DNA of 64,000 bases from Sporocytophaga myxococcoides (GCF_000775915.1 NZ_BBLT01000002.1:716384-780383), one strand, 5' to 3'; positions 21,615 to 40,209 are shown, numbered from the stretch's first letter. Translations and numbers: made by a program. Notes: a model not told the origin generated them from the letters alone.

Positions 21615-21804
21615 TATATAAGTTGTAAGTAGTAAGTTATAAGTTTTAAGGAGATGTACTGTCTGTTCATAGTTTATCAACTCCTTCCAGCTCCCTCCTT
21701 ATGTTAAATTTAAAAAAAATATTTTACACCTGCGCAAAAATAATGCGTAGTGACTTTTCAATTTTGATTCAATAATTTAAATAACTGATATTTAAATCTT
21801 GAAA

Positions 21805-23446: not shown

Positions 23447-24958
23447 TTACCAGAATTTCCACCAGGGTTTCTTCTTTATTGCTTCCGGATTGATTTTGCT
23501 ATCAGGAGCTTCCGGGACCTTTGGTTTATGTTTTATTACATGTTTGTAACGATGCGTTTCAAGTATTTTTTTTACCCTTTCTTCCAATGGTTTTCCTTTC
23601 TCCGGATTAACCATCTTTACAAAGTTGGCATATCCTTTTATTGAAGCAAGAAGGTTGGTGCTGTTGTTCCAGTGTTTTCCTTTTATTGTTCCTTCTTTTT
23701 CTATTTGATGCAACAGGGCTCTGAATTTATCCAATTCCTTTCTGCATAAACTTGGTTTATCATTTACTATAATTCCTGTTACTTCCTTTCTCGCTCCTTT
23801 CCGCAGCACACGAAGCTTATCAGGATTAATATAAAGCTTTTCATCTTTGATTATTTTTTTAACAAAACCTAAAAGAGTTGAAGTATTAGATGTTGCTATT
23901 CCTGAAGCAGAGAAAGTAAGATCGTCTGCATATCTTGTGTAATTGAAATGAAGTTTATAAGCAATACCTTTTAATCTCTTATCAAGTTTACGACAAATAA
24001 GATTAGTGATCGCAGGGCTTGTTGGAGCGCCTTGCGGGAGGAATCTTTCACTTCCTGCGGCATAGTATGTTTCTCCGTCCAGTTCCACCTGATCACAATC
24101 GGGTTCAGTACAGATCAATGCAAATATTGTTGAAATCTGTTCTGAATAACCCAATGCAATAAACAAACCTTTTACCCTTCGATAGTTGATAGAAGGGAAG
24201 AAATCTTTAAGATCTATATTCACAACTACCTCTGCTTTTACATGTGGTAAAGCATTGCTGACGATAGATCTTTTCTTTATAAAACCATGTGCAGATTCTG
24301 TTGCATCTATTTTATTAAGTATGTTTTCAAGTATCCAGTGCTGAGCTTTTTTAAGCCTTGGCATAGGAGTGGAGATAAGACGTTTGCCTCCTGTTTTTTT
24401 AGGTATGTAAAACCTTCTGTAATGATTGATTTTACTGATTGTTCTATTATAAGAAAGAAACTTTAGTTCACCGATCGTTATCTTCATGGCAGCGGATAAC
24501 TCTTCTGCTGTTTGAAATACAGGCAACTGGTATTTTAAAAGCTTGTTGCTATCGCTTACTTGATTATTCAGACCTTTAGAAACTTTCTCTCCAAGATAAA
24601 TGATATTTTTATCTTTAAGTTCTTTCCATCGTGCAGCTTTGGCTTCCCTTTTTTGCTTTCTGAGAATTTTGTTTTCTTCTCTTTTTTTTCTGGATTGCTC
24701 AAGCCTCGCTTTCCTTACCTGTTTAAGCGCTTCTTCTCTGTTTTGATAAATCCGCTGCTGCTGAAGTAATTTATTCAGTTCTTTGATAAGGTCAGCCTCT
24801 TTGTGGATCAGCATTTCCGGAATTTCCGAAACTCCTTCATCACTTTTCCAGAAGCCCAGACGCTTCATCTCTTCAAGTATGACAGCATTTCTGCCGCTTG
24901 CTTTGATGCGCTCGTACAACTGCTGTCTGGTTGGCTGAGAGTTTTCTGTGTTGACCAT
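23447..24958 (-). CDS. retron-type reverse transcriptase with ~150-aa Lys/Arg-rich coiled-coil N-terminal extension and ~90-aa C-terminal extension
   Basis: KRSIVSNALPH contains the retron NAxxH motif and DLKDFFPSI follows it. LPQGAPTSPAITNLI, YTRYADD (YADD catalytic motif) and RKEVTGIIV (retron VTG motif) are present. The start is taken at the Met at 24958, just downstream of the a2 repeat; the ORF is open back to 25021. Confidence 0.8.
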   Translation of the reverse strand: MVNTENSQPTRQQLYERIKASGRNAVILEEMKRLGFWKSDEGVSEIPEMLIHKEADLIKELNKLLQQQRIYQNREEALKQVRKARLEQSRKKREENKILRKQKREAKAARWKELKDKNIIYLGEKVSKGLNNQVSDSNKLLKYQLPVFQTAEELSAAMKITIGELKFLSYNRTISKINHYRRFYIPKKTGGKRLISTPMPRLKKAQHWILENILNKIDATESAHGFIKKRSIVSNALPHVKAEVVVNIDLKDFFPSINYRRVKGLFIALGYSEQISTIFALICTEPDCDQVELDGETYYAAGSERFLPQGAPTSPAITNLICRKLDKRLKGIAYKLHFNYTRYADDLTFSASGIATSNTSTLLGFVKKIIKDEKLYINPDKLRVLRKGARKEVTGIIVNDKPSLCRKELDKFRALLHQIEKEGTIKGKHWNNSTNLLASIKGYANFVKMVNPEKGKPLEERVKKILETHRYKHVIKHKPKVPEAPDSKINPEAIKKKPWWKFW

Positions 24959-24970
24959 AGAAGTATAAAA

Positions 24971-25197
24971 AATGGTAGTGTACAGGACATTCTTCGTCAT
25001 TCTGAGGACCGGATTGGTCAACTCCAGCGAGACGTCACTATATGCTTATTTCAATTCCTGGAATTCTTACCGGAAATGAGCATATAGTGGCAGGATCGCA
25101 CAGTTAAGAACGAGCCGGTGGCGCGTTAGTAAGCTGTGTACAAGGACTGTGATACACAGCCCGGGTTGCAAGATTTTAATACCCTGCCACTACCATT
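24971..25197 (-). ncRNA. putative retron msr/msd non-coding RNA
   Basis: 10-bp perfect inverted repeats aatggtagtg (24971-24980) and cactaccatt (25188-25197) bound the region in an a1/a2-like arrangement. Inside are a 17-bp bulged stem (25035-25051 / 25072-25089) and a 7-bp hairpin (25134-25159). It lies immediately 5' of the RT ATG on the same strand. Confidence 0.5.
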
Positions 25198-25198
25198 A

Positions 25199-25230
25199 CA
25201 AAGCTAAATTTTAAATTTATCTGTTACAAA
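25199..25230 (-). promoter_or_regulatory. Bacteroidetes sigma-A-type promoter for the msr/msd-RT transcript
   Basis: On the minus strand, TTTG at 25230-25227 is followed by a 20-nt spacer and TAGCTTTG at 25206-25199. This predicts a start about 7 nt downstream, at the a1 repeat. Confidence 0.45.
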
Positions 25231-25232
25231 CT

Positions 25233-26876
25233 TTAATACAAATTTTGTTTCTTTCTGAATGCAATTCTCAATGCAAGCATATGCTCACATGGTCCCTGCA
25301 TCAACTTATTTTGATGAAAGAAATTACAACTACACTTCCCGCTTACAATTCTTTCATCACTATCAATCACAAGTTCTGGGTTATACGTTTTGTTATCCTC
25401 TTTAACGGTTCCTGTCAACTTTTGCTTTCCTTCGGATACATCTGCTTTGAATTGGATGCTCCGGTTGTCAAAGAACCTATTGGCTTTTTCTTCTCTTGCA
25501 TTAGAAAATCTTAATGCTTCAAGGGGTAATGTTTCTCTTGAAATCTCTCTTATCCGATAACAATTATTGTTGAGATCATAAATAGCCTTTCCCTGTTGGG
25601 TAAACGCGGACAAAGCTCCAAGGACAAGCGATTTGTCCAGTTGTAGTCTTGAAGCCAGTACTTCCGGCTTTTCAACCCACTTTTCTTTTAGTCCGATAAA
25701 AACCTTTTGCATGGTCATGGCATCAGCTTCTGCTCTCGGAGCAAGAAGATCAAAGTTGCCCATGCGTGACCAGTCATTGGCAGTCCAGCCGGACAAGCCA
25801 AGTGTGAAATTCATTTCACCTAAATCTGCTATGTAAAAGGAGGGAAGCCCTGAACCTAAAAGAACTACTTTAATAGAATTTGTTACAGGTATTAATCTTT
25901 CTAAGAGTAATAATCTTCTTCTTCCCCATACTTTTATTTCTTTGGGTTCATTACCAGTGTAAATAGATCTGAGGCATTTGATCTCGTAGTTCCAGGGTTC
26001 AAAAATCATTCTTACAGGTTCCCCAGGCTTCAGAATATATCGGATGTATCTTGGTCCTTCTTTTTCTTTATGTCTTTTGAGTATAAAGCAGATGTTGTAA
26101 ACATCCATTGGATGCAATTCGAAAGATGTTGCCGGAATAGACATTGCAGAGCTCACCTGAAGAAATCCTCTTACCCAGCTTGCCGGTACATCAATCTTCA
26201 CTTCTTTATAGCTTTCTTCTGCAGTAGTCTGAACTTCAAATCCGGAAGGATCTATGTTGAAATGTGTATCTTTATATTCTCTTATCTTCTGAAATTCATT
26301 ATACAGACTGGAAGAATAATCAATATTGGTTGTACCGCACTTAAACTCACTTAAATTTTTAAATACATTGTAGTTACATCCAAGCTTGCCGTAAGAAGAT
26401 TCGTCCTGACTGAAACATTCAAAAAATAATTCATCAGGATGAACTGTTATGACGGGATCATAAACCCTCATCAATTCCGGGCTGGTCCGGTAGAGGTACT
26501 GGAAATATTTGTTTTGAGCTTTGTAGAAGGGCTCCATTACATTGTATTTTTCCCTTCTTACTTTTTCTAGCTCTACCCTTATGCCTTTAAGTTTTTGCTC
26601 TACGTCTTCTGCTCCTCCTAAATATTGTGCAAGCCAGATATCTTCCTGCTCTTTTGCCCATGTCTTATAGTCTGTTTTATCTTTAGGTTTAAAACGGAAA
26701 TCAGAAACTACTATGTCATGAAGTGCAGATATGGCTTCTCTGAACGGAATATGTTTGTTAAGATACCCGGAGAAGTAGGTTGGTTCTCGGTATATATCAG
26801 GTGCGAAATTCATGCTTGTAGAGCCTGATGTATTTTTAACCGTGGTATCTCCTTTAAATTTATAATTGAATTCCAT
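25233..26876 (-). CDS. SWIM zinc-finger domain protein
   Basis: C-terminal …CSCNFFHQNKLMQGPCEHMLAL is a CxC…CxH SWIM finger. 547 aa. Its start lies 3 nt from the stop of the WGR gene. Confidence 0.65.
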   Translation of the reverse strand: MEFNYKFKGDTTVKNTSGSTSMNFAPDIYREPTYFSGYLNKHIPFREAISALHDIVVSDFRFKPKDKTDYKTWAKEQEDIWLAQYLGGAEDVEQKLKGIRVELEKVRREKYNVMEPFYKAQNKYFQYLYRTSPELMRVYDPVITVHPDELFFECFSQDESSYGKLGCNYNVFKNLSEFKCGTTNIDYSSSLYNEFQKIREYKDTHFNIDPSGFEVQTTAEESYKEVKIDVPASWVRGFLQVSSAMSIPATSFELHPMDVYNICFILKRHKEKEGPRYIRYILKPGEPVRMIFEPWNYEIKCLRSIYTGNEPKEIKVWGRRRLLLLERLIPVTNSIKVVLLGSGLPSFYIADLGEMNFTLGLSGWTANDWSRMGNFDLLAPRAEADAMTMQKVFIGLKEKWVEKPEVLASRLQLDKSLVLGALSAFTQQGKAIYDLNNNCYRIREISRETLPLEALRFSNAREEKANRFFDNRSIQFKADVSEGKQKLTGTVKEDNKTYNPELVIDSDERIVSGKCSCNFFHQNKLMQGPCEHMLALRIAFRKKQNLY

Positions 26877-26879
26877 CCC

Positions 26880-29800
26880 TTATTTCTTTACATATTCAGA
26901 ATAATCAACTACTTTAACAAAGTTATGCAATGAAGGATATTTTTTCCGGATATCTCTGAGTATGTCAATACATCCGGCTTTTTCTGAAATAGCCATAGAC
27001 CCTGAAGCTCTATTCAGAATTTCTGATGCAGTTTGTGCAACGGTTTCATTTTTCATAGCTTCTTTTTTCAGAAAATCCAGTGCGCGCAATTTTGCTACTT
27101 TCCCTTTATTTACCTGAGAAAGTAAGGTGACAAAATATAGCTTCAGTTTTTCAATTACATCTGGTTTGTCTCCGGCGTATGTTTCAAGATATGATGAAGT
27201 AAATAGCTGCAATCTTGTATCCGGGTGCTGACTTAATTTTAATAAATATTCTTCTCCGTCTTCGATCTTAAAGGATTTGGTAATCATTTCCTTTCCAAAG
27301 TTTTGAACAGTTTCTCTTGTGCTGTCGCAAAGAGCAATAAGGTTTTCAGCAGACCAGTCTTCTTGTTTGAATGTATTTCTGAAATAATCAAAAGCAAAGT
27401 TTCTTGTGTCTTCCCAGTCAGAATCTACAATCCTTAATGCTTCTTCTTTATTTTCCTTTATCCTGAGATGGTTGTTATTGTAGTAGTTCCACGCATACTT
27501 TCTTATCTCTTCATTTGGATTACCCGAAATCTTCACAATTTCAGAGATTGATAATTCCTCTTCTCTGATTGTCATTTTTAGTAAAGCAGCACCAAGTAAC
27601 TGTGCAGATTTAAATTTTGAATGAAGGAGTAAAAGTCCCTGATTTTTATTGATGTATGACAAGCTGCCAGAAAGCTCCGTTATTAAGAGGTTAAGTAAAT
27701 CATGATGTACCCCTTCATAAGTTTCCTTCATCAGAAATGCGGGAACAAACAAGTCGATAAGCTCATTCCCGAATGCAGGGTATGCCTTCGTGAGATTTGC
27801 AATGATTGGTTTTACTGCATTTCGTACATCCGGAAGTGGTGATAAACAAAAGCTGATAAGGAGTTCTTTTTTTTCTATCAGAGAAGTTTCAGGAAATCTT
27901 CCTAACAGCTCGATACCTGCAGTTCTCGCTTTTTCATTTTCTGATTTTAAAAGAGCTTGAAGGAGTTCACTAGGAATAAGTTCAGGATTTAGTTTTTTGT
28001 GTACCAGTATAGAACCTGCAATGGCATGTACTTCCGGTGAAAAATGTTGAAGCAGATCTTTGATGATATCTGTTCCTATAAAATCAAGCTGGTTTCCGAA
28101 TATATCCAGCATTGTTTGACCTGTATGTGAAATAAAGAGCTTATCTTCTTCCGATCGAACTTCAGTCTGGATAATGGTAGCAAGTATTTTCCCAATGACT
28201 ATTTCAGCTTGTTGATCAGGAATGTTTGCTGAGATTAGTAGTGACCTTACTTTGGTTTGTATGAAAGAATTCCTAAGGAAAATCAATTCAGTAACGAATT
28301 CTGAATTACTTATGAATACTTGTTTCTGCTCTTCAATCCATTGCAAAGCCTGAATGCTGGCTTCTTCAAGAGGACTTTGAAGCATCCCGATTAGAAGTTG
28401 TGTGTCAGGATTAGCGGAATTATAAGCTTTCATAGCTTCTTCCAATCCAACCTTTCTTGTTATCTCAAAAGCAGCATTCAGAATATCTACAATATTTTCT
28501 GTTGTAAGCTGATTAGCGAATTCGGGGTTTGCTTTAAATACCTTTAATGCAAACTCATGTACCTGTAAAGATCTTGAGCACGATAAGAGCTTTATAACTT
28601 CATTTGCCGCGGTGTCCCAGAGTTCGGGAAAGGCCTCTTCTCTTTGTAATGGCGCTTCATTACCTGGAATATAAGGCTCTATACATTGCCATCCGCTTGG
28701 GCCCAAAGAGTATCTTGGACTGTTTTGAAAGAGTATGAAATTATATGCTTTGTATATAGCATTAGCTTCGAAATATGTTTTTGTCTCAATTACATCGTGC
28801 CTTTTGGTTTGCTTGTTATATACATAAGTATAGGTGGAGCGATGATAGGAAGGTTTGCTGTCTTTGCTATCATCAAAAGCCAATAATACTCCACAAGCCA
28901 TTTCCTTATACGATGAAGATTTAACTTCACCAAGCCTCTTAAGTGATCTGACTACTCTTGCAGAAAGATACCTTTTGGTTTTACTGCTAAAAGCTCCTTT
29001 ATCACTGTATGGACCTGGAGAATGTTTATCAATATTTTTTGTTATGATCCCAAAAGTTTCATAATCTTCCCACATCTCAGCCATTTTAAAGATATGTCTG
29101 ATATGTTTGAAATAATTGTAGGTAAGAGGAACATTATTGATTATACGTGATAATATTCTCTTTAATTCTCTATTATCATGAGATAAACGATAAAGGGAAG
29201 ACAGATACTCGTTGGATGTTGATTGGGTTTTAAAGAGTAATTCCTTTAATTGAATATGAAGCCCTGAATAATTTCCTACCAGCAATAATTTCTTTATATG
29301 TTCTGGAAGTGTTGCAAGAAGATACTCTCCGGCTGTTTTTCTCTCTGCAGGATCTGATATCCTGAATAAAGCTTCTGATATGATATCATTTACATGTTGA
29401 GGATAGTCATGATTCTGTTGCAATGACTTAAGAAAAGAGGCTGAGTTTGAATTACCGCATTTTCCGATTGTCCATATTGCAGAATAAACGGAAATGTTGT
29501 CAGAAAGGTCTGTCAATTTTTGAATTAAGGGAATTGCTTCATGTATATTGAGTTCGCCTGCTCTCCAGAATACTCTTGACAAAGGCCAGTTTTCGGGTTG
29601 ATCACCATCTACTGCATTCTTTAAAATTTTAAGAATGGCTTTCTTTCTGCGGTCATTGTCTTTTGCGCCTTGAACAGGCTTACTGACAATCCCCATTGGC
29701 TCACCTTCTGTGGAATATCCCTTGCTTCTTTTTTCCTTTTCCAGCGCATCAAAAACTTTATTTGCTTCCTGCAGGTCAACAGGAAAAATAGTTTTGGTAC

Positions 29801-29939
29801 CTTCTTTCAGGGTTGCGCCTCTTCTTCCATATCTGAAATTAACCAGAAATCCTCCTCCGGATTCGCAAAGGTCAATTTCATATACTTTGTCCGAGGTTCC
29901 TTCCTGAAAGTATAATTTTATTTGCTTTATCAGTTTCAA
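26880..29939 (-). CDS. WGR-domain protein with long HEAT/ARM-like helical repeat region (MolR/YehI-like)
   Basis: N-terminal …TSDKVYEIDLCESGGGFLVNFRYGRRGATLKEGTKT…KGY is a WGR domain. An ~850-aa helical region follows. Confidence 0.7.
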   Translation of the reverse strand: MKLIKQIKLYFQEGTSDKVYEIDLCESGGGFLVNFRYGRRGATLKEGTKTIFPVDLQEANKVFDALEKEKRSKGYSTEGEPMGIVSKPVQGAKDNDRRKKAILKILKNAVDGDQPENWPLSRVFWRAGELNIHEAIPLIQKLTDLSDNISVYSAIWTIGKCGNSNSASFLKSLQQNHDYPQHVNDIISEALFRISDPAERKTAGEYLLATLPEHIKKLLLVGNYSGLHIQLKELLFKTQSTSNEYLSSLYRLSHDNRELKRILSRIINNVPLTYNYFKHIRHIFKMAEMWEDYETFGIITKNIDKHSPGPYSDKGAFSSKTKRYLSARVVRSLKRLGEVKSSSYKEMACGVLLAFDDSKDSKPSYHRSTYTYVYNKQTKRHDVIETKTYFEANAIYKAYNFILFQNSPRYSLGPSGWQCIEPYIPGNEAPLQREEAFPELWDTAANEVIKLLSCSRSLQVHEFALKVFKANPEFANQLTTENIVDILNAAFEITRKVGLEEAMKAYNSANPDTQLLIGMLQSPLEEASIQALQWIEEQKQVFISNSEFVTELIFLRNSFIQTKVRSLLISANIPDQQAEIVIGKILATIIQTEVRSEEDKLFISHTGQTMLDIFGNQLDFIGTDIIKDLLQHFSPEVHAIAGSILVHKKLNPELIPSELLQALLKSENEKARTAGIELLGRFPETSLIEKKELLISFCLSPLPDVRNAVKPIIANLTKAYPAFGNELIDLFVPAFLMKETYEGVHHDLLNLLITELSGSLSYINKNQGLLLLHSKFKSAQLLGAALLKMTIREEELSISEIVKISGNPNEEIRKYAWNYYNNNHLRIKENKEEALRIVDSDWEDTRNFAFDYFRNTFKQEDWSAENLIALCDSTRETVQNFGKEMITKSFKIEDGEEYLLKLSQHPDTRLQLFTSSYLETYAGDKPDVIEKLKLYFVTLLSQVNKGKVAKLRALDFLKKEAMKNETVAQTASEILNRASGSMAISEKAGCIDILRDIRKKYPSLHNFVKVVDYSEYVKK

Positions 29940-30261
29940 ACAAATTAGAATTAAAAGTTTTCTGATTAAAAATCAATATCATTCAAAATATGAAGTGACA
30001 AAGTAGTTAATATGTATAGCAATTTCCAATAAATAGCAATTTTTTCGTTTGGAAGTAAGTTATAAAGTTGGAATCGACGTTGTTAAAGAAGTTTAAGTTA
30101 GGAAAAATGAACCGTTTATTTTTTCTTGAAAAAATTTAAATTTTATAGTTCTTTTTGTATATATTTGATTATCATTTTTAGTTGAGGTAAGAATAACTTT
30201 TAACCATTTATATATTAACCTTTTTGTCATATAATCGTAATCAAAATACAATTCTGAATCA

Positions 30262-30897
30262 ATGAATGAGTTATTAACTGAATCTTTTAAAAATTCAAAT
30301 TTACCAGTTACAATTTTACTTCTTCTGGTATTGTTTTACTGGGTTATAAACCTGATTGGGATATTTGATCTGGAAATGTTGAGTGGGGATGCAGAACTGG
30401 ATAAGGGACATGTTGAAGTTGAAACTGATTCTGATTCAATATTAGGAAAAACCTTTGATTTCGGAGATCTTCCAATTGCCATTGTGATCAGTTTTTTTGT
30501 ACTCTTTTTCTGGATGATTACAATATTGACAAATTATTATCTGGGAAATTCTTCCTTATTTTTTGCCTTGATTATATATCTTCCTGCAATCATCGGGTCT
30601 TTTATTGTAACGCGCATCATCTCGATTCCGCTCGCGAAAATATATAGTTTGCTGAAGTTAAATACAGAAGAGGCAGAAACCGTTAGTGATTATACCGGTG
30701 CTATCTGTATGGTTTTTGTGGAAGCTACTTCGGAAAGAAATGGTCAGGGTGAGATCAATAGAAATGGAGATCCTATCAGGGTTAATATCAGGACCTATCC
30801 TGGTAAACAGATGTTAAAGGGGAGCTCAGCACTTTTAATTGAATATATCAAAGGTGGTGATTACTATATCGCTGAGCCATACGATTCCGAAAGATAA
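30262..30897 (+). CDS. NfeD-like membrane protein (short NfeD/YuaF type) preceding flotillin
   Basis: 2-3 N-terminal TM helices and a C-terminal beta-rich soluble domain (…GAICMVFVEATSERNGQGEIN…IRVNIRTYPGKQ…) consistent with an NfeD OB-fold. It sits 46 bp upstream of a flotillin gene. Confidence 0.5.
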   Translation: MNELLTESFKNSNLPVTILLLLVLFYWVINLIGIFDLEMLSGDAELDKGHVEVETDSDSILGKTFDFGDLPIAIVISFFVLFFWMITILTNYYLGNSSLFFALIIYLPAIIGSFIVTRIISIPLAKIYSLLKLNTEEAETVSDYTGAICMVFVEATSERNGQGEINRNGDPIRVNIRTYPGKQMLKGSSALLIEYIKGGDYYIAEPYDSER

Positions 30898-30943
30898 ACT
30901 AATACTAAACACATATTAACAACTCTTATAAATCTTAAATCCA

Positions 30944-33058
30944 ATGTTAGAGAATGTATTAATGACGACAATTCTGATAGGAATTTTTTTCGTCGTGATG
31001 ATCCTTGTTCTGTTAGTAAAATGGTATAAGAAAGTACCGCAAGGAAAGGCCATAGTACGAACAGGCGCAGGAGGAACAAAGGTTACATTTACCGCTATGT
31101 TCGTGATTCCGGTTCTTCATAAAATGGAGATTATGGATATTTCTTTGAAAACGCTTCATATTAAAAGAATTGGAAAAGACGGACTTATTTGTCAGGATAA
31201 CATTCGTGCAGACATAGAAGTGGCTTTTTTTGTAAGAGTTAATAAAGGTGTAGAAGATGTTGTAAAGGTTGCTCAGACAATTGGTTGCGAGCGTGCTTCC
31301 CACAAGGAAACCCTTGTTTCTATTTTTGATTCAAAATTTTCAGAGGCACTAAAAACAGTAGGCAGAAGATTTGATTTTGTTTCGCTTTATTCCGATAGAG
31401 ATAAATTCAAAAAAGAAATACTAGATATCATCGGAACTGATCTTAACGGTTATCATCTTGATGATTGTGCAATAGATTATCTTGAGCAGACACCGCTTGA
31501 GTTTATGAAGACCGATAATATCCTTGACTCACAAGGTATCAAGAAAATTACCGAGATCACTGCTCAGCAAAAAATTCTTGCAAATGAAATCAAAAGAAAT
31601 GAAGAGAAGGTACTTCGTAAGCAGGATGTAGAAGCCAAGGAAGCTATTTTAGAGCTTAACCGTCAGCTTGCTGAAACAGAAGAAAGGCAGCAAAGAGAAA
31701 TTGCTATCATTCGTGCAAGAGAAAAAGCTGAAGCTGAAAAGGTAATGTCAGAAGAGAAACTAAAATCTGAACTGGCAAGAATAAAATCAGAAGAAGGTAT
31801 TCAGGTTGCAGAGGAAAATAAACAGAGGCAAATTATTGTGGCTTCTAAGAGCAAAGAGAGAACCGATGCAGTGGAAACACAACGTGTGGAGAAAGATAAA
31901 TTACTTGAAGCAAACGAAAAAGAAAGAGTTGTTGCTCTGGCAATAATCGAAAAGGATAAAGCTCTTGAGGAAGAAAAGAAAAACATTCAGGATGTGATCA
32001 GAGAGCGCGTAATGGTTGAAAAAACGGTTGTTACTGAAGAGGAAAAGATAAAGGATGCAAAAGCATTTGCTGAAGCAAACAGAAATAAGGAAGTAGCAAT
32101 TACGAATGCGACAACTCAAGCGGAAGAGTTGAAGGTGAAAGAAATTAAAATGGCAGAAGCAATGAAAGCAGCTGCTGAGATCAAAGCATTGCAGTTAATG
32201 TTGGAAGCAGAAGCTGCACAAAAAGCATCTGCAAGTCAGGCAGACGCCAGAAGAACAATTGCAGAGGTAACAATACTTGAGGAATCAACGAAAGGGTTGG
32301 CTGAAGCTCAGGTGATCGAAGCTAAAGCGAAAGCCCAGGAAAAACAAGGGACTACAGAGGCCCTGGTTTTTGAGAAAAAATCTGTTGCAGAAGCGAAAGG
32401 CATAGAAGCGAAAGCAACCGCAGAGGCAAAAGGTATTGAAGCCAAAGCTGCTGCTGATGAGAAAAAGGGTACAATGGAAGCTACAGTTTTACACAAGAAG
32501 ATGGAAGCAGAAGCTCAGGGTATCACTCAGAAAGCCGATGCTATGAAGAAACTGGATGGGGTTGGTAAAGATCACGAAGAATTTAAACTTAAACTGGATA
32601 AAGAGAAATCTATCGAGCTTGCTGAAATCAACATTCAAAAAGATATTGCCGAAGCCCAGGCTAAAGTTATCTCTGAAGCATTGAAGGCTTCTAAGATAGA
32701 GATTGTTGGTGGCGAAACAATGTTCTTTGATAAAATCGTTGGTTCAATCACAAAAGGAAAGTCACTTGATAAGATGGTGGACAATAGTAAGCTTCTTACG
32801 GATATCAAAGGATCCTTTTTAGGTGATGGAAATGAAAACTTACTTGAAAGAATACAGGATCTGTTAGGTAAGCATAAGCTTTCTACCGAAGATATCAAGA
32901 ACCTGTCTATATCTGCTCTGATATTAAAATTAAGTTCAGGAACTGTTGATAATGCCCTTAAAAATACACTTGCTTCTGTATTGAATGAGGCAAGGGATCT
33001 GGGAATTGCAAACCAGACGCTTGAGAACCTTGGAATAAAGATTAAAACAAAAGAATAA
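30944..33058 (+). CDS. flotillin-family SPFH/band-7 protein with long Glu/Ala/Lys-rich coiled-coil region
   Basis: N-terminal TM, then …VRTGAGGTKVTF…IPVLHKMEIMDISLKTLHI… (SPFH), then a ~400-aa EA-repeat region including AKGIEAKATAEAKGIEAKAAADEKKG repeats. Confidence 0.85.
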   Translation: MLENVLMTTILIGIFFVVMILVLLVKWYKKVPQGKAIVRTGAGGTKVTFTAMFVIPVLHKMEIMDISLKTLHIKRIGKDGLICQDNIRADIEVAFFVRVNKGVEDVVKVAQTIGCERASHKETLVSIFDSKFSEALKTVGRRFDFVSLYSDRDKFKKEILDIIGTDLNGYHLDDCAIDYLEQTPLEFMKTDNILDSQGIKKITEITAQQKILANEIKRNEEKVLRKQDVEAKEAILELNRQLAETEERQQREIAIIRAREKAEAEKVMSEEKLKSELARIKSEEGIQVAEENKQRQIIVASKSKERTDAVETQRVEKDKLLEANEKERVVALAIIEKDKALEEEKKNIQDVIRERVMVEKTVVTEEEKIKDAKAFAEANRNKEVAITNATTQAEELKVKEIKMAEAMKAAAEIKALQLMLEAEAAQKASASQADARRTIAEVTILEESTKGLAEAQVIEAKAKAQEKQGTTEALVFEKKSVAEAKGIEAKATAEAKGIEAKAAADEKKGTMEATVLHKKMEAEAQGITQKADAMKKLDGVGKDHEEFKLKLDKEKSIELAEINIQKDIAEAQAKVISEALKASKIEIVGGETMFFDKIVGSITKGKSLDKMVDNSKLLTDIKGSFLGDGNENLLERIQDLLGKHKLSTEDIKNLSISALILKLSSGTVDNALKNTLASVLNEARDLGIANQTLENLGIKIKTKE

Positions 33059-33082
33059 CACGTCAAGATTTATTAAGTAATC

Positions 33083-36000
33083 ATGGCAGAAGTTAAACCT
33101 GAGAATACTTCAGATTCTAAAGCAGTGCAACTTGATTCCGGTACTTATGAAGTTTTGCGAAGCAGACTTGATAAGTCAGGCAAGGACCTAAGGGAAAGAC
33201 TGGGGAAACTTAACGAAGACAGAAAGAATGTATTCGGCGCTATAGAGCAAAAGCTCGTAGCAACAGCAAGGATTACCACGGAAAATAATTGTGTACCCAG
33301 AGATATGGTTTCTCTGGGTACTTATCTTTTATTCGGATACAACGTCCATATTGGATTAAGATCAGAAACCGTTCTAACGGATGTATTCAGCATCTATCAG
33401 TATAAAGACCATTCATTTGTTCATGCTGGGCTTAATAAAATCCAGACTGAACTTTTTGAATCGGATTTTAAAGAACTTTATAAGTATTACAAAAGTACTT
33501 CCTTTGAAAAGTTTGCAATTATTGGTCCTTATATGTACATGATCTTCCGCGTCGGAAAAGGCGCGAAGGACATTAAGACATTTAAATGGCTCATAAGTGG
33601 CGAGGAGTTGAAATATGAAGGAAACAGAAGCGAACATGAATATAAGTTTCCTCCTCAATATGGATTCGAATGGGAGCGCACATCAAGGGATTATCACAGA
33701 AAGGGTAAGCACCCTCATGTATCCGTACTTGACAAAGTCTTCATAGAAACGATAGGGGGGGATTTAACAGTTAAGATTGAAGACAATACTGAAGACGGGG
33801 AAGGTATCTACTCCGAACCTGTTGAAGATAAAGATCAGAGACTGGATGATGCAGAGATGTATTATGCAGATCTGGGAAATATCATTCTGCTGAAGATAAA
33901 ACCTTTTAAAGAGGACCAATTCAGATATATAGTCTATAACGATAAAATTAAGAAGGCACAGAGGATTGACGCAATAAAGGATTCCTGTGTTTTGCTTCCT
34001 GAAAGCCACGGAATTATTTTTTCGAAGGGATATTATCTCCAGACTGGAGAGTTTAAACTTTTTGATAACGACCTTCAGGGACTTAGGTTTGAAAAGAGAA
34101 TTCAGTCTCCTAATGGGGAAGATTATTTATATGTGTTTTATAATGACGAGCATGGTGCATATATTCTGCTTCCATATAATCTTATAGAACAAAAGGTTGA
34201 CAACCTTATTCTTTGTCATGGTTACTCTATATTTGACAATGGAGAGCTGATCTATTTTAACGATCAGAATGAACCTTCAAAACATCATACCATTCAGATA
34301 TGGAGTTCTGCTTATTTCAGCAGTACCTATATTCCTCCGATAGTTCCAGATTCTTATTTGTATAAAATCGGAAACAAGGACATCGTCCGTTGTATGGCCG
34401 AATGTTCGGAAGTGCTCGGCCTCCTTTCCAAAAACGACGAAGCTTATTCAAATTTATATCTAGATATTGTCAAGATCAGCACGGACCTGCTTGATTCTTA
34501 TTATTGGATCAGGGAAGAGGCTACATTCAACCTGGCTCAGCCTGTTGCAGAAATTAAATCAACAGCTGCTGCTACCATTGAGGAATTTGAAAAGGTAGTC
34601 AGGATAAAAAGGAATACATTAGATCAGGTTAAAAAACAATCAGACCGGGCAAAAGCTATTCTTGATCAGATAAAGCGCGACAGGTTTGAAGACATCAATA
34701 CTTTTGTAAATATTCTTTCTGAGTTAAGGTCATTGAGAGGGGATATTATTTCTCTGAAAGAACTCAGGTATGTCGATCTTATTGCTGTCAGCGATCTTGA
34801 AATGAACATATCGGATGAAACGGAAAAGCTTTCGGCAAAGTGCGTTGAGTTCCTCTTGCAGGAAAAGGCTTTGCTTCCTTACCATGAAAGGGTAACTTTT
34901 TTAAATGCTGCTGCCGAAAAGGTAACGAAGGTTACCGAAGCGAATAAGACTGAAGAGGAGATCGCTCAGGTCAGTAATGAGCTTGAAATGCTGATTCAGA
35001 TTGTCAGCAACCTGAAGATTGAAGATGCAACTCAGACGACCAAAATCATAGATACGATTTCTCTCATTTTTTCTGAGATCAATAAATTAAAGGCTTCTCT
35101 TAAAAACAGAAAACTGGAGTTAAGGAGATCTGAAAGTGAAGCGGAATTTAATTCTCAGATAAAACTATTGGATCAGTCCATAGTAAACTATCTGGATTTA
35201 AGTTCTACGCCTGAGAAATGTGAAGAGTTTCTTTCTAAGCTTATGATACAGCTGGAAGAACTGGAAGCTAAATTTCCCGACTTCGATGGTTTTATCAAAA
35301 TAGTTTCTGAAAAAAGAGAAGAGCTTTACGGAGCCTTTGAAAACCGTAAGCTGTCTTTAATAGAAGCTCGTAACAACAGGGCCAACGCCCTCATGAGCGC
35401 TGCGGAGCGTATCTTGTCCGGAGCAAAAAACAGAGTGGCTACTTTCGATACAGCTGCTGAGATCAATGGCTATTTTGCCTCTGATTTGATGATGGACAAA
35501 CTCAGGGATATTGTAAAGCAGTTAAATGATCTAAGTGATACTATAAAGGCGGATGACATTCAGGGCCGTATGAAAAACCTCCGTGAAACAACACTGAGAC
35601 AATTGAAGGATAAGAAAGAGTTGTTTGTCGGAGGTGCTAATGTTGTAAAATTCGGAAATTATAATTTTTCTGTAAACACACAGGCTCTAGAGCTTGCAAT
35701 GGTGAACAGGCACGAAGAAATGTTTTTTCATATCACCGGCACAAGCTTCTTTGAAAAAGTAACAGATCCTGAATTCCTCAATACCAAGTCTTTCTGGAAT
35801 CAACACCTGATATCTGAAAACGACTATGTTTACAGAGGAGAATACCTGGCTTGGCTTCTTTTTAATGAAGGTCAGGTAAACTCTAAATATGATAAAGAAA
35901 ATTTAGTTAAGCTGGACGAGCCTTCTCTTACTGTCGTAGTTCAGGAATTCATATCCAACAGATATTCCGAAGGGTATGTCAAAGGAGTGAATGACAGGGA

Positions 36001-37990
36001 TGCTGCTTTGATACTTAAAGCGCTGCTCCACATTGAAGGTGGCCTTGATTTACTCAAATATGCTTCTGAGGCAAGGGCATGTGCAAGATTTTACTGGTTG
36101 CATGTTCTTGATGAAAACGCAAGAAGAAGCTTTGATTTAAGATTAAAAGGAATAGGAAGCATTCTTAAAATTTTCCCGGGAAAAAATACACATCAAGAGA
36201 TCATCAGTCTTCTTAAAACAGGGATACAAAAGTTTATAGAACAGACTCGTTTTTTTGAAGCAGAAATTGCTGCTGAAGCAGCGGATTACCTGTTTGATGA
36301 GATGGTAAGAGGGAATGTATTTGTCATTAGTCATGAGGCTCTGGAGCTAACAAAGGCTTTTAATGCATTCCTGAAGAAGAAGAAATATGAAGAGGAATGT
36401 ATTGCATCGGTACAAAATCTTGACGGCAATCCTGTTAATCAGTTTGACCTGACAAGAAACTGGCTGAAAGCATTTATTGATAGCGAAAAATCTGCCAGTC
36501 ATGAGTTTGTGGATGAAGCAGCTGTCATACTATTGTCAGGCATCGATAATTGTAAGGAAATCATTGCTAAATCTGAAGTTGTATTGGAGGGATTATCCGG
36601 AAGTCACAGCTTGATTCAGAAAGGTAACTATCTGTTTCATTTTAATAAATTCGTAAAGAAATTATCACGCTACCAAAGAGAAGTTGTTGCGGGTTATTCA
36701 GCTTATGTGAAGAAGAAAAGCGCATTAACGGAAAGCTTTAGAGCTGACTTGCGCCTTGAAGAATATAAAACAAATGTGCTAAGTTCATTCGTGCGTAATA
36801 AGCTGATTGATGATGTCTATCTTCCTTTAATAGGTGCAAACCTTGCAAAACAGATAGGAGTGGTGGGAGAGAACAAACGTACTGATCAGATGGGAATGTT
36901 GCTTCTGATATCTCCGCCCGGCTATGGTAAAACCACTTTGATGGAATATGTTGCTAACAGGCTGGGATTGATCTTTATGAAGATCAATGGTCCGGCTATA
37001 GGACATAAGATCACTTCAGTGGATCCATCGGAAGCACAGAATGGCGCTGCAAGGGAGGAGCTGGAAAAACTGAATCTCGCATTTGAGATGGGCGATAATG
37101 TCATGATTTATCTGGATGATATTCAGCATTGCAATCCTGAGTTTCTTCAAAAGTTTATTTCTCTTTGTGATGCACAAAGGAAGATCGAAGGTATCTATAA
37201 AGGGAAGTCCAAAACATATGATTTCCGTGGAAAGAAAGTCTGCGTGGTAATGGCAGGAAACCCTTATACAGAAAGCGGTGAAAAATTCAGAATACCTGAT
37301 ATGCTTTCCAACAGGGCAGATACCTATAATCTTGGAGATATCATAGGTGACAAAGCAGATGTGTTTAAGTTAAGTTATATAGAAAACTGCCTGACCTCAA
37401 ACACGATTACTTCAAAGGTTGCCAATAAAAGTCTTAAAGACATTTACTCTTTTGTTAAAATTGCCGAAACCGGTGATAGCTCGGGTCTTGATTTTGAAGT
37501 ATCCTACGCTGCTGAAGAAACTAATGAGATCGTATCTGTTATTCAGAAGTTACTTTCAATCAGAGATGCTGTGCTTAGAGTTAATCAGGAATACATCCAT
37601 TCGGCCTCGCAGGCAGAAGAATTCAGAAATGAGCCGGTATTTAAGCTCCAAGGTTCTTACCGGAATATGAACAAGATGGCGGAGAAAGTTGTGCCAGTGA
37701 TGAATGATGAGGAATTAAAAATGCTTATCAATACCCATTACCAGAACGAAGCACAGACGTTGACTACAGGTGCTGAGGCTAATCTGCTGAAATTTAAAGA
37801 TATTACAGAAAGAATTACTCCTGAAGAGAAGGCAAGATGGGAAGAAATTAAGACGACCTTTAAGAAAAATCAACGCTTTAAGGGCATCGGAGATTCAGGT
37901 CAGATAACTCAACTGCTTACACAGCTTGCAGTGCTTGGAGAGGGTGTTGAAGGTATAAAAAATGCAATAGAGAAAAAGTCTTCCGAATAG
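33083..37990 (+). CDS. giant (1635 aa) protein with central coiled coil and C-terminal MoxR/AAA_5-type AAA+ ATPase domain
   Basis: Walker A LLISPPGYGKTTLMEY, Walker B VMIYLDDIQH, and sensor-1/Arg region VCVVMAGNPYTESGEKFRIPDMLSNRADTY of the MoxR/dynein-like type. 24 bp downstream of flotillin. Confidence 0.6.
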   Translation: MAEVKPENTSDSKAVQLDSGTYEVLRSRLDKSGKDLRERLGKLNEDRKNVFGAIEQKLVATARITTENNCVPRDMVSLGTYLLFGYNVHIGLRSETVLTDVFSIYQYKDHSFVHAGLNKIQTELFESDFKELYKYYKSTSFEKFAIIGPYMYMIFRVGKGAKDIKTFKWLISGEELKYEGNRSEHEYKFPPQYGFEWERTSRDYHRKGKHPHVSVLDKVFIETIGGDLTVKIEDNTEDGEGIYSEPVEDKDQRLDDAEMYYADLGNIILLKIKPFKEDQFRYIVYNDKIKKAQRIDAIKDSCVLLPESHGIIFSKGYYLQTGEFKLFDNDLQGLRFEKRIQSPNGEDYLYVFYNDEHGAYILLPYNLIEQKVDNLILCHGYSIFDNGELIYFNDQNEPSKHHTIQIWSSAYFSSTYIPPIVPDSYLYKIGNKDIVRCMAECSEVLGLLSKNDEAYSNLYLDIVKISTDLLDSYYWIREEATFNLAQPVAEIKSTAAATIEEFEKVVRIKRNTLDQVKKQSDRAKAILDQIKRDRFEDINTFVNILSELRSLRGDIISLKELRYVDLIAVSDLEMNISDETEKLSAKCVEFLLQEKALLPYHERVTFLNAAAEKVTKVTEANKTEEEIAQVSNELEMLIQIVSNLKIEDATQTTKIIDTISLIFSEINKLKASLKNRKLELRRSESEAEFNSQIKLLDQSIVNYLDLSSTPEKCEEFLSKLMIQLEELEAKFPDFDGFIKIVSEKREELYGAFENRKLSLIEARNNRANALMSAAERILSGAKNRVATFDTAAEINGYFASDLMMDKLRDIVKQLNDLSDTIKADDIQGRMKNLRETTLRQLKDKKELFVGGANVVKFGNYNFSVNTQALELAMVNRHEEMFFHITGTSFFEKVTDPEFLNTKSFWNQHLISENDYVYRGEYLAWLLFNEGQVNSKYDKENLVKLDEPSLTVVVQEFISNRYSEGYVKGVNDRDAALILKALLHIEGGLDLLKYASEARACARFYWLHVLDENARRSFDLRLKGIGSILKIFPGKNTHQEIISLLKTGIQKFIEQTRFFEAEIAAEAADYLFDEMVRGNVFVISHEALELTKAFNAFLKKKKYEEECIASVQNLDGNPVNQFDLTRNWLKAFIDSEKSASHEFVDEAAVILLSGIDNCKEIIAKSEVVLEGLSGSHSLIQKGNYLFHFNKFVKKLSRYQREVVAGYSAYVKKKSALTESFRADLRLEEYKTNVLSSFVRNKLIDDVYLPLIGANLAKQIGVVGENKRTDQMGMLLLISPPGYGKTTLMEYVANRLGLIFMKINGPAIGHKITSVDPSEAQNGAAREELEKLNLAFEMGDNVMIYLDDIQHCNPEFLQKFISLCDAQRKIEGIYKGKSKTYDFRGKKVCVVMAGNPYTESGEKFRIPDMLSNRADTYNLGDIIGDKADVFKLSYIENCLTSNTITSKVANKSLKDIYSFVKIAETGDSSGLDFEVSYAAEETNEIVSVIQKLLSIRDAVLRVNQEYIHSASQAEEFRNEPVFKLQGSYRNMNKMAEKVVPVMNDEELKMLINTHYQNEAQTLTTGAEANLLKFKDITERITPEEKARWEEIKTTFKKNQRFKGIGDSGQITQLLTQLAVLGEGVEGIKNAIEKKSSE

Positions 37991-38005
37991 GGGAAGACTT
38001 TTTTA
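37977..38005 (+). terminator. rho-independent terminator of the NfeD-flotillin-ATPase operon
   Basis: agtcttcc-gaatag-ggaagact followed by T7; overlaps the stop codon. Confidence 0.6.
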
Positions 38006-38066
38006 TAGGAATTTAAAAAAGAAAGATCAATTGAGATAACTAAAAAAGGCCTTTTTTACAGATAGT

Positions 38067-38498
38067 TTGATGGAGAATCATATACGAGAAGTCTATAATT
38101 GTATTTTAGAATTCGAAAAACATGTTGAGTTAACTGATCGAATATTTAAAAATCATTATAAGATTTTAGTTTCGCCATTTAAGGCTTTAAGGGAAAAATT
38201 AGTACCTAGGATGGGAACATTGAAGTATGAAGGAGGGGAAATTAGTTTTCGATTTCATGGGTATGGTTGCCAATTCAATTTCTCGGGTTTGATCATTGAT
38301 TATGATTATGGACAACCTCCTGATTTTAACTACGAAGGTTTTGATTCATGGAAGTTATTTCAGTTTATACTATCACAGAAAAAGTATGAGAATTTGAAAG
38401 ATGAACCTCTATTTAATTCTATAATACTCGAAATGGATTCAAGAAAGATTATTGAAAAAGTCAATCCCCAATATCATACTTTTAAACTGGTAGAGTAG
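38067..38498 (+). CDS. hypothetical protein (143 aa)
   Basis: Clean ORF with no recognisable motif. Convergent with the PLD nuclease. Confidence 0.35.
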   Translation: MMENHIREVYNCILEFEKHVELTDRIFKNHYKILVSPFKALREKLVPRMGTLKYEGGEISFRFHGYGCQFNFSGLIIDYDYGQPPDFNYEGFDSWKLFQFILSQKKYENLKDEPLFNSIILEMDSRKIIEKVNPQYHTFKLVE

Positions 38499-38583
38499 TG
38501 ACCATTAAAACAAAATATTGATCATATGCTCTCTTAGTAAATAAAGGTGGAAATATAGCCGCTTTTACATGACTTTTTATTTC

Positions 38584-39021
38584 TCAATAATCCTCCATCT
38601 GCTCCCAGAGCTTATCAAACTCCCCTTTAAAATCTTTTACTATTCCCTTATCTGAAGTAAACACAATGTTTTCGTGATTGTATAAAGCCGCACTCCTTGT
38701 CCAGTTGTAACTGCCTGTAAGAGCTATTTTGTTATCTATAATAGCAAACTTGTGATGCATATGATAAGGAGACTTGTCAACCTTTATCTCAATGCCAGAT
38801 CTGTGCAGCTTATCGATATCCGACCCGTCATCATAACATTTGTCATTATCAGTAATTATTCTGATATCTATACCAAATTGGTGCCTTGCAATAATAACGT
38901 CCGTGATAAGGTCATCGCTGATGGTAAAGACACAAATTTTGATTGAAGAAACGGATTGATGGAGTTGTTCAATGATGGCCTGGCGACAATCTTCACCGGG
39001 ACTGAAAAATACTTTGTTCAT
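38584..39021 (-). CDS. PLD-family (Nuc-like) endonuclease, single HKD motif
   Basis: …HMHHKFAIIDNKIALTGSYNWT… is HxK(x4)D(x6)GSxN. 145 aa, typical of dimeric Nuc-type nucleases. Confidence 0.8.
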   Translation of the reverse strand: MNKVFFSPGEDCRQAIIEQLHQSVSSIKICVFTISDDLITDVIIARHQFGIDIRIITDNDKCYDDGSDIDKLHRSGIEIKVDKSPYHMHHKFAIIDNKIALTGSYNWTRSAALYNHENIVFTSDKGIVKDFKGEFDKLWEQMEDY

Positions 39022-39052
39022 AAGAATACAGCCTTAAGAGGCTGAAATTAAG

Positions 39053-39073
39053 AAGGCCACAGGTAGTGGCCTT
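39053..39073 (-). terminator. hairpin terminator after pspA
   Basis: aaggccac-aggta-gtggcctt 8-bp stem between the pspA stop and the nuclease start. Confidence 0.4.
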
Positions 39074-39085
39074 TATGTGATCGGA

Positions 39086-39817
39086 TTAATTTTCTAATTT
39101 TTTGGTAGAGTCAATTGCAATTTTTGCTTTCAGGTGTGCAAGAGAATCGGCAATTAATGGATGTGTAAGACTGCCTTCCAGCGCCTTATTGATTTGATCA
39201 TCCACAGATTTATTATTATCTGCTATTTCTCCATAAGACTGTGCCAGCGCCTCTTCCTGATTTATTTTATCTTTCATTTTCTCCAGCATTCTTAGAGTAT
39301 TATTGGCATCAAGTCCTGCAAGTTTCTGGTTAAAATCTTTAGTACTCTTTGCAACTTTTACACGGGCTTTCAGAGTGTCAAGTTCACCTTCCCAACCATC
39401 TATTTTACTTTTTAGCAGTTTATTGTTGCTCTCAATTTTTGAGGCCATATCGTTGTATTGCTTTACAGTATTGCTTAATGTCTCTATCTGAGAAAGAGCG
39501 GAATGTCTTTTCATTAAAGCTTCACTTGCAAGTCTGTCCCCTTCAACAGGATCAAGACCGCCTGATTGAGCTTTCTGTAAGAGCAGCATTGCTTTATGCT
39601 CATATTCCAATGCTACTTTATTTTTTTCTTTCTGGTCGTTTTCCGCTTTTATGGCAAGGGCTTTAACCTCAGCAAGGCTTTTCAGTCCTTTGTTCAGATC
39701 TTCACGAAGATCCCGTAATCCCTGCTCAATCATATTAATAGGATTTTCAAGTTTATCAAGAGCAGCGTGTGCTTCAGCTTCACCAATTTTAAAAAGACGT
39801 TTGAACCAGTTTAACAT
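39086..39817 (-). CDS. pspA: PspA/IM30 family protein
   Basis: 243 aa all-helical. N-terminal MLNWFKRLFKIGEAEAHAALDKLENPINMIEQGLRDL is typical of PspA/Vipp1. Confidence 0.85.
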   Translation of the reverse strand: MLNWFKRLFKIGEAEAHAALDKLENPINMIEQGLRDLREDLNKGLKSLAEVKALAIKAENDQKEKNKVALEYEHKAMLLLQKAQSGGLDPVEGDRLASEALMKRHSALSQIETLSNTVKQYNDMASKIESNNKLLKSKIDGWEGELDTLKARVKVAKSTKDFNQKLAGLDANNTLRMLEKMKDKINQEEALAQSYGEIADNNKSVDDQINKALEGSLTHPLIADSLAHLKAKIAIDSTKKLEN

Positions 39818-39861
39818 TTTACAAATTTTAAGATATCCGATTTAATTGTATTGATTAACGG

Positions 39862-40209
39862 TTAATGCTGTCCGTTAAATTTTTTTTCAAAATAATTATA
39901 CGCCTCATTCAATTTCCTGGTTATTTCCTCAGCTATTTTGCGTTTCTCTTCAGAATGAACGTGTTTATCAGGATGATATTTCCTGATCAGCTCTTTATAC
40001 GATACTTTAATTTCACTAAAACCTGCACCATATTTCACCTCAAGATTGGCGCAGTATTCTGCTTCTTTCTTTAAACCCGGGTCCATTGGCTTTGTCGGAG
40101 GATGATCTGTGTTTTCAAACGAATCTTTTCCAATTTCTAAATCCTCTTTCGAAAGTTTTGTTTTCGGAAGGCTTGATTTCAGGATCTTGAAGAATCTTTT
40201 TATCAACAT
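39862..40209 (-). CDS. J-domain (DnaJ-like) protein
   Basis: …YKELIRKYHPDK… is the HPD J-domain signature. Confidence 0.7.
   Translation of the reverse strand: MLIKRFFKILKSSLPKTKLSKEDLEIGKDSFENTDHPPTKPMDPGLKKEAEYCANLEVKYGAGFSEIKVSYKELIRKYHPDKHVHSEEKRKIAEEITRKLNEAYNYFEKKFNGQH

Follow-up and report, generated by a model that had tools for sequence, protein, structure and literature searches.

What does a giant ATPase do beside a flotillin? The question is raised by a 64,000-nucleotide stretch of the Sporocytophaga myxococcoides genome (GCF_000775915.1, NZ_BBLT01000002.1:716384-780383; we will call this whole stretch the window), in which three genes on the plus strand lie head to tail. Gene 1 (30262-30897) encodes a membrane protein of 211 amino acids from the YqiJ/YuaF group (DUF1449, a short NfeD-like protein). 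Gene 2 (30944-33058) encodes a YqiK-type, flotillin-like SPFH protein of 704 amino acids, and gene 3 (33083-37990) encodes a soluble giant AAA+ ATPase of 1635 amino acids. Genes 1-3 form one operon, for a small membrane protein, a flotillin, and an ATPase, and this operon is widely conserved in bacteria. We think it reasonably likely that these genes, together with a convergent operon that encodes a J-domain protein, PspA, and a phospholipase D (PLD)-like protein, are the Cytophagaceae version of a PspA/flotillin/YqiJ/AAA+ envelope-stress system, and that this system carries out ATP-driven remodeling of flotillin and PspA assemblies.

Gene 3 belongs to a large family: we found more than 4674 clusters at E ≤ 1e-10, from Bacteroidota, Planctomycetota, Pseudomonadota, Spirochaetota, Riflebacteria, and Actinomycetota. 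(Copies from three loci in metagenome-assembled genomes (MAGs) are 93-97% identical over gene 3.) In 72 of 79 genome loci, a homolog of gene 2 is directly upstream of the gene 3 homolog and on the same strand, and a search with a hidden Markov model placed a homolog of gene 1 ahead of the flotillin gene in 67. Among the 69 loci with enough flanking sequence, which represent several phyla, 67 contain the complete trio. Genes 1 or 2 are missing from other loci because the contigs end too early, except for L010 and L032, the two loci that break the synteny. This arrangement is far above what chance would produce. A previous reading of the window, made without database searches (the sequence-only reading), had tied the ATPase to flotillin and NfeD-like genes, and that tie holds across the family, whose members are not scattered away from such genes. 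Several other genes recur near gene 3: PspA/IM30 is within 10 kb in 41 of the 79 loci, a YjfI-like DUF2170 gene is nearby in 38, a rhomboid gene in 26, a PLD gene with a single HKD motif in 24, and a gene for a Zn-ribbon protein in 21.

Within the window, the open reading frames, the spacing, and the flanking sequence all agree with the compact three-gene operon that the sequence-only reading described at 30262-37990. The gaps between the genes are 46 bp (genes 1 and 2) and 24 bp (genes 2 and 3). Folding of the plus strand predicts a hairpin at 37972-38004 that resembles an intrinsic terminator (ΔG = -17.2 kcal/mol, z = -5.1 versus shuffled sequences). It has a perfect 13-bp stem, overlaps the TAG stop codon of gene 3, and leads into a T-tract. 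A consensus terminator scanner did not list this hairpin, presumably because the stem reaches into the run of Ts. On the other side, gene 1 is separated from a divergent gene by 322 bp (29940-30261) with a GC content of just 21.7%, which would be the promoter region. It contains a single candidate for a Bacteroidota-type -7 box (TATATTTG, at 30160-30167 on the plus strand), and a promoter scan found that sigma-70-like sites were not enriched over shuffled sequences (32 sites versus 26 ± 5).

The identities of genes 1 and 2 were not apparent from standard searches. Gene 1 had no direct match in Pfam, NCBIfam, PADLOC, or the sequences of the Protein Data Bank (PDB), and its family profile did not match anything in PDB either. 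Gene 2 had no match in Pfam (to either Band_7, PF01145, or Flot at the curated threshold), NCBIfam, PADLOC, or PDB, even by family profile. We built profiles for each family, with homologs from 26 other genomes (A1 for gene 1 and A2 for gene 2), and compared them to the proteins of E. coli MG1655. Both assignments were reached by profile-profile comparison (hhalign) only: A1 aligned to YqiJ with a probability of 91.7% (E = 7.7e-7, 130 columns), and A2 aligned to the flotillin YqiK with a probability of 99.9% (E = 1.4e-35, 411 columns, 30% identity). These results bear out the labels "NfeD-like" and "flotillin" from the sequence-only reading.

Other features of these two proteins fit with these labels. 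Gene 1 has three hydrophobic segments followed by a beta-rich C-terminal domain, and its ortholog in Hymenobacter is annotated by RefSeq as a "DUF1449 family protein". With its homology to YqiJ and its position directly 5' of an SPFH gene, gene 1 is one of the short-form NfeD-like proteins. Gene 2 has an N-terminal transmembrane segment, an SPFH domain, a long helical region that is rich in Glu, Ala, and Lys, and a conserved C-terminal segment. By inspection, residues 8-27 are hydrophobic and are followed by basic residues, so this is a candidate for an N-terminal membrane anchor. (A crude test for heptads was uninformative as to whether gene 2 contains a coiled coil, as the sequence is rich in alanine.) The ortholog of gene 2 on the megaplasmid pQBR103 is annotated by RefSeq as an "SPFH domain-containing protein". 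Judging from the profiles, we classify genes 1 and 2 as a divergent subfamily of YqiJ/NfeD-like proteins and of flotillins, respectively.

The sequence-only reading saw no recognizable domain in the first ~480 amino acids of gene 3. This was mistaken: residues 35-474 (33185-34504, plus strand) match Pfam's DUF3686 with E = 3.9e-183. In our structural model, DUF3686 has an N-terminal helix and then about seven blades of four beta-strands each, so it is modeled as a β-propeller-like domain with about seven blades. When 1.84 billion representative proteins were searched for DUF3686, 733 matched, and in every case, the domain was at the N-terminus of a protein of 1600-1900 amino acids, or else the protein was an obvious fragment. 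The middle region of gene 3 (residues ~480-850) is helical and partly heptad-periodic. (Proline and glycine are sparse in residues 451-700, and the crude test found heptad periodicity at residues 490-561, 650-692, and 753-805.) This region encloses another domain of the DUF type, DUF7902 (PF25472; residues 595-677 or 34865-35113 on the plus strand; E = 4.4e-27).

The AAA+ module lies near the C-terminus (residues ~1240-1460, 36800-37462 on the plus strand) and is supported by Pfam, by its motifs, and by the structural model. The matches of residues 1273-1397 to Pfam's AAA and AAA_5 are weak, yet above the cut-offs. We identified a Walker A motif (GYGKT, with K1283), a Walker B motif (DD, 1345-1346), a sensor-1 asparagine (N1393), and a candidate for the arginine finger (R1411). 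All of these are invariant across 72 homologs that are only ~41-66% identical overall, and because the catalytic motifs are conserved in such diverged proteins, gene 3 is probably an active ATPase. In the model of residues 1000-1635 (predicted local distance difference test, pLDDT, of 79.8), helices form one domain, which is followed by an AAA+ core whose sensor 1 is preceded by a β-hairpin. Among solved structures, the nearest are those of two MoxR proteins, NorQ and CbbQ, and Foldseek also places NorQ first, so the modeled fold appears nearest to the MoxR chaperone type of AAA+ protein. The earlier description of gene 3 as a giant, MoxR-like AAA+ protein is supported. Searching PDB with the sequence of gene 3 favored Cdc48 and RuvB, but these matches spanned the Walker A region alone. 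We preferred the structural comparison and did not use these matches to place the module in a clade.

Immediately downstream of the ATPase gene, and convergent with it, is a partner operon that the sequence-only reading overlooked (38584-40209, minus strand). Its first gene (39862-40209) encodes a J-domain protein of 115 amino acids (Pfam DnaJ, E = 7.9e-9) with the HPD motif (KYHPDK). The second (39086-39817) encodes a PspA/IM30 protein, which is a bacterial ESCRT-III-like protein, of 243 amino acids (PF04012, E = 7.4e-36). The last (38584-39021) encodes a PLD-like hydrolase with a single HKD motif (145 amino acids, Pfam PLDc_2, E = 4e-31). PspA from the window is divergent: a tblastn search with a gammaproteobacterial PspA as the query missed it, and Pfam later detected it. 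A similar search of the window with a DUF2170 protein gave no significant match (E = 0.079), and the gene 5' of PspA encodes the J-domain protein, not a CesT/Tir protein (YjfI/DUF2170-like).

The PLD-like protein contains the HxK..D..GSxN motif, and it is 44-52% identical to PLDs from 21 gammaproteobacterial loci, whose genes are on the same strand as gene 3 and within ~0.6 kb of its 3' end. (In 8 of the 21 loci, the PLD gene is immediately adjacent to gene 3; a rhomboid gene separates the two in several more.) The ATG start gives 145 amino acids, while the ortholog from L001 was called as 158 amino acids from an upstream start; the translation of 38584-39060 in the window holds one stop codon, and we adopted the shorter ATG start as the putative start. 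Between the terminator of the ATPase gene and the PLD gene, there is also a DUF6896 gene (38067-38498, plus strand, 143 amino acids, Pfam E = 1e-24). Among the 79 related loci, only L001 has this gene, and L084 has no called gene at that spot. It is probably an insertion that is unrelated to the flotillin/ATPase system.

PspA, the flotillin, the YqiJ/YuaF protein, and the AAA+ protein with its propeller and coiled coil are all encoded within 30262-39817, and the same four components are clustered in five other loci. L084, from a relative whose gene 3 protein is 73% identical, has the same convergent arrangement as the window, PLD included. In the other four, PspA is co-directional with genes 1-3 in a single cluster. 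In Cytophagaceae bacterium ABcell3 (L087), the order on one strand is gene 1, gene 2, gene 3, DnaJ, PspA. In Sanyastnella (L088) and in a plasmid record of Hymenobacter sp. DG25B (L081), it is CesT/Tir, PspA, gene 1, gene 2, gene 3, and a member of the Fulvivirgaceae (L086) has the same order, with five other genes between gene 2 and gene 3. A DnaJ gene is directly 5' of PspA in L084 (748-1077), L085 (9510-9872), and L087 (9597-9950) as well as in the window, and a CesT/Tir (YjfI-like) gene holds this position next to PspA in other Bacteroidota (L081, L086, and L088). Replacement of CesT/Tir by a J-domain gene appears to be a variant of the Cytophagaceae. By analogy, a J-domain gene beside PspA suggests that DnaK (Hsp70) controls PspA, as for VIPP1 in the chloroplast, whose oligomers are reported to be controlled by Hsp70 (PMC12798727, PMC10602608).

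We also noticed two other features of these related loci. First, the clusters from Hymenobacter and Fulvivirgaceae have a divergent gene for a LexA-like regulator, with a helix-turn-helix (HTH) domain and Peptidase_S24 (L081, 610-1395; L086, 8421-9203). In L088, the regulator at this position has the HTH domain alone, and the window has no LexA-like regulator. It is possible that the LexA-like protein is a dedicated repressor of the system. Second, the Pseudomonas fluorescens SBW25 megaplasmid pQBR103 (L082, 86395-103335) has genes for a YqiJ-like protein, an SPFH protein, and the giant ATPase directly 3' of rhomboid, DUF2491, DUF350, DUF1190, and glutathionylspermidine-synthase-family genes (yjfKLMC-like). 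This cluster is a fusion, on a plasmid, of two classes of PspA-associated operons.

The sequence-only reading also stated that a giant ATPase is not a described partner of flotillin. In fact, Ravi et al. (mSystems 2024, PMC11237479; preprint 2020) described exactly such operons in silico. They reported CesT/Tir-PspA operons with a band-7/flotillin protein, a YqiJ/YuaF protein with three transmembrane segments, and a novel AAA+ protein with an N-terminal coiled coil and a β-propeller; some of these operons also have an HKD phospholipase D, and shortened operons with just flotillin, YqiJ, and AAA+ are widespread. From computational work only, they proposed an ATP-dependent role in membrane remodeling or as a chaperone (PMC11237479). 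The window matches their system in its flotillin (a transmembrane segment, band-7, and a putative coiled coil), its YqiJ/YuaF protein with three transmembrane segments, its AAA+ protein with a propeller and a coiled coil, its PspA, and its HKD PLD. It differs in being split into two convergent operons and in having a J-domain gene that stands in for CesT/Tir (the J-domain is absent from the main text of PMC11237479). So this kind of system was already described in silico, and the arrangement with the J-domain is a minor variant.

Characterized systems share parts of this set. The gene pairs yqiJ-yqiK of E. coli and yuaF-floT of B. subtilis, which are of the SPFH2 group (Hinderhofer et al. 2009, PMC2636767), also have a gene for an NfeD-like transmembrane protein first and the flotillin gene second, with significant homology at the level of profiles. 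However, no ATPase gene follows yqiK, and gene 2 is ~150 amino acids longer than YqiK. In B. subtilis, ydjFGHI encodes the SPFH protein YdjI along with PspA, and YdjI is reported to be needed for PspA to reach the membrane (PMC8581546, PMC9239133). That operon lacks an AAA+ ATPase, and YdjI is from another SPFH subgroup. The AAA+ module of gene 3 has its best structural matches among the MoxR chaperones (NorQ-NorD, CbbQ-CbbO, and E. coli YehL-YehP), but MoxR proteins are ~250-500 amino acids long and have a partner with a VWA domain, whereas in gene 3 the ATPase is fused to a propeller and a coiled coil and reaches 1635 amino acids. Finally, as with ESCRT-III and Vps4 (CdvB and CdvC), a polymer-forming protein of the ESCRT-III superfamily (PspA) is encoded beside a large AAA+ protein, and the proposed logic is the same: a polymer and a motor that disassembles it. 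In contrast to Vps4, gene 3 appears to lie outside of the classical Vps4 clade (given the modeled hairpin before sensor 1 and the best matches to NorQ and CbbQ) and has no MIT domain.

We propose that the YqiJ/NfeD-like protein, with its three transmembrane segments, and the YqiK-type flotillin, with most of its bulk facing the cytoplasm, would be the scaffold of the system, and that the soluble MoxR-like AAA+ protein, with its N-terminal β-propeller and long helical arms, would be the motor. The flotillin and YqiJ would assemble into an SPFH oligomer, a microdomain or cage that sits on the membrane's inner face, and would bring PspA to the damaged membrane. The ATPase would oligomerize via its AAA+ ring and would dock via its propeller and coiled-coil arms. 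ATP would then be spent to assemble, remodel, or disassemble the polymers of flotillin and/or PspA, or to mature a client that is held there. The J-protein may recruit DnaK for the turnover of PspA, and the PLD enzyme may adjust the local lipids (cardiolipin or other phospholipids) or else act as a nuclease. The identities of the genes, their synteny, the conserved catalytic motifs, and the structural class are observed; the topology and oligomeric state of the proteins, what the ATPase acts on, and which way the remodeling runs are all inferred.

Several observations weigh against this proposal. About half of the loci lack PspA within 10 kb, and therefore PspA cannot be an obligate substrate. 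Because flotillin is the invariant neighbor of the ATPase and PspA is not, flotillin/YqiJ is more likely to be its direct partner. Even this association has exceptions: L010 (from an uncultured bacterium) and L032 (from a Methyloprofundus MAG) encode the ATPase and have ~9-10 kb of upstream sequence, with no adjacent flotillin or YqiJ. MoxR proteins normally act with a VWA partner, and we did not see a VWA gene near gene 3, either among the open reading frames of the window that were scanned with Pfam, among the recurrent neighbors in the 79 loci, or in L081, L082, and L084-L088. The AAA+ module appears to be on the MoxR side, with the pre-sensor-1 hairpin, and not in the classical Vps4/Cdc48 clade, so the analogy to Vps4 is functional only. 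Single-HKD enzymes may be nucleases rather than lipases. Our structural models of gene 3 cover the regions on either side of residues 520-1000. And a search of the literature yielded no experiment on any member of the DUF3686 ATPase family.

There is a more specific version of the proposal, which we offer tentatively, as a possibility that we doubt more than we believe. A Vps4-like ATPase is regarded as absent from bacteria (2025 review, PMC7619361). The DUF3686 ATPases might be the missing bacterial counterpart of Vps4: non-homologous and derived from MoxR, they would dock on flotillin cages by means of the β-propeller and the coiled-coil arms and would disassemble or recycle the polymers of flotillin and/or PspA during membrane repair. 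In the Cytophagaceae, the J-protein would hand PspA to DnaK.

We also considered that gene 3 might not remodel polymers of flotillin or PspA at all, and might instead act as a MoxR-type chaperone in the maturation of one particular membrane client inside the flotillin microdomain, for instance by helping a protein complex to be inserted or activated. Its closest structures, NorQ and CbbQ, are chaperones that activate nitric oxide reductase (NOR) and Rubisco, respectively, and there are SPFH cages, HflK/C among them, that house client AAA+ machines. Ravi et al. (PMC11237479) also propose the assembly of membrane-linked complexes. However, in the neighborhood we saw neither a VWA adaptor nor a conserved candidate for the client: only PspA, PLD, and rhomboid recur. 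The chaperone explanation is unlikely, in our view, though it deserves to be taken seriously.

Two further alternatives involve the genes on the other side of the divergent region. Going outward on the minus strand, these are a gene for a WGR and HEAT protein at 26880-29939, a SWIM gene at 25233-26876, and, at 23447-25021, a reverse transcriptase gene whose product is extended at its N-terminus. Each matches a PADLOC model over its full length (WGR_XIII, E = 0; SWIM_XIII, E = 6.9e-236; RT_XIII, E = 6.7e-189). The type XIII class is from the classification of Mestre et al. 2020, as encoded in PADLOC-DB (v2). By these matches, 23447-29939 is predicted to be a complete and self-contained type XIII retron. 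The spacer between the SWIM and reverse transcriptase genes (25022-25232, minus strand, 211 bp) has a long-stemmed predicted fold (-69.2 kcal/mol, z = -3.6) and is 98% identical in four genomes, where the flanking proteins are 84-96% identical. This spacer is a candidate for the msr/msd RNA of the retron. It has no match in Rfam, which had zero matches across the entire 64-kb window. The divergent 322-bp region was ruled out as the site of the retron's noncoding RNA, as it is unstructured (on the minus strand, its RNA structure is not above that of shuffled sequences, z = +0.94). Beyond the retron, a gene for a WYL-WCX-PhyH fusion protein (19866-21680, minus strand) is divergent from a gene for the RNA ligase RtcB (21935-23359, plus strand). 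This pair looks like a WYL-regulated RNA-repair module.

With a retron next door, the cluster could be an anti-phage or abortive-infection system in a defense island: the flotillin and its AAA+ partner would act as a membrane sensor of infection, and the HKD protein would be the effector, a nuclease. Large AAA+ and other NTPase proteins are common in defense systems, the PLD-like protein, being small and having a single HKD motif, could be a nuclease of the Nuc type, and there are copies of the system on megaplasmids such as pQBR103. But PADLOC-DB v2 had no match for genes 1 and 2, and for gene 3 it had only a weak match to the P-loop of mad8 (E = 1.1e-3). The ATPase is present in 0 of 50,697 phage records and in just 13 of 72,556 plasmid records. 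Furthermore, its conserved neighbors are envelope-stress genes (PspA, YjfI/CesT, yjfKLMC-like, and rhomboid), not variable defense genes, and the putative effector PLD is in only 24 of the 79 loci. An anti-phage role is quite improbable.

The sequence-only reading considered it plausible that the flotillin/ATPase operon and the divergent WGR and SWIM genes are functionally linked, which would make them one system that resembles the yeh cluster of E. coli. It gave the domains of that cluster correctly: in RefSeq, yehF has PF05406 (WGR), yehI is DUF4132, yehL is MoxR, yehP is VWA, and yehQ is SWIM. The two sets of genes do adjoin across the shared 322-bp region, and the AAA+ module of gene 3 is MoxR-like. 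However, the WGR, SWIM, and reverse transcriptase genes match the retron models end to end, with the candidate noncoding RNA between SWIM and the reverse transcriptase. BLASTP found no pairwise similarity of the window's proteins to YehI, YehQ, or YehL (so gene 3 has no sequence similarity to YehL), and we saw no VWA gene. The retron genes adjoin the flotillin/ATPase operon in only three loci, all from Sporocytophaga, and are absent from the other 76 of 79. There is no reverse transcriptase, SWIM, or WGR gene among the called genes beside the operon in L084 (where an AIRS-domain gene was called upstream of gene 1) or in L087. Because the co-occurrence is limited to Sporocytophaga, the retron is not part of the flotillin/ATPase system, and its adjacency here should not be taken as a functional link. 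The co-occurrence data largely refute a joint system, which we consider very improbable.

Lastly, we see almost no prospect that gene 3 is a DNA repair ATPase similar to SbcC or SMC, as suggested by its NCBI family name ("DNA repair ATPase"), by Pfam's description of DUF3686 ("ATPase involved in DNA repair"), and perhaps by the LexA-like HTH and S24 regulator beside the cluster in L081 and L086: our analysis gives no support to the name, which presumably stems from the similarity of the coiled coil to COG0419 ("ATPase involved in DNA repair") and for which our literature search gave no backing paper; no nuclease, helicase, SMC-hinge, or DNA-binding domain was detected in gene 3; its ATPase is of the AAA+ type, not the ABC/SMC type; and all of its conserved partners are membrane proteins.

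We return, then, to the proposed system for the ATP-driven remodeling of flotillin and PspA assemblies under envelope stress. The window does not add anything categorically new to what is known of this system, and it provides a tidy example, with all of the partners inside 10 kb. Flotillins and PspA/ESCRT-III proteins are central to the organization and repair of bacterial membranes. An AAA+ protein of 1600-1900 amino acids that is syntenic with flotillin and NfeD-like genes, and often with PspA, across phyla is an obvious candidate for the motor that would take their large assemblies apart, and the J-domain variant points to the involvement of Hsp70.

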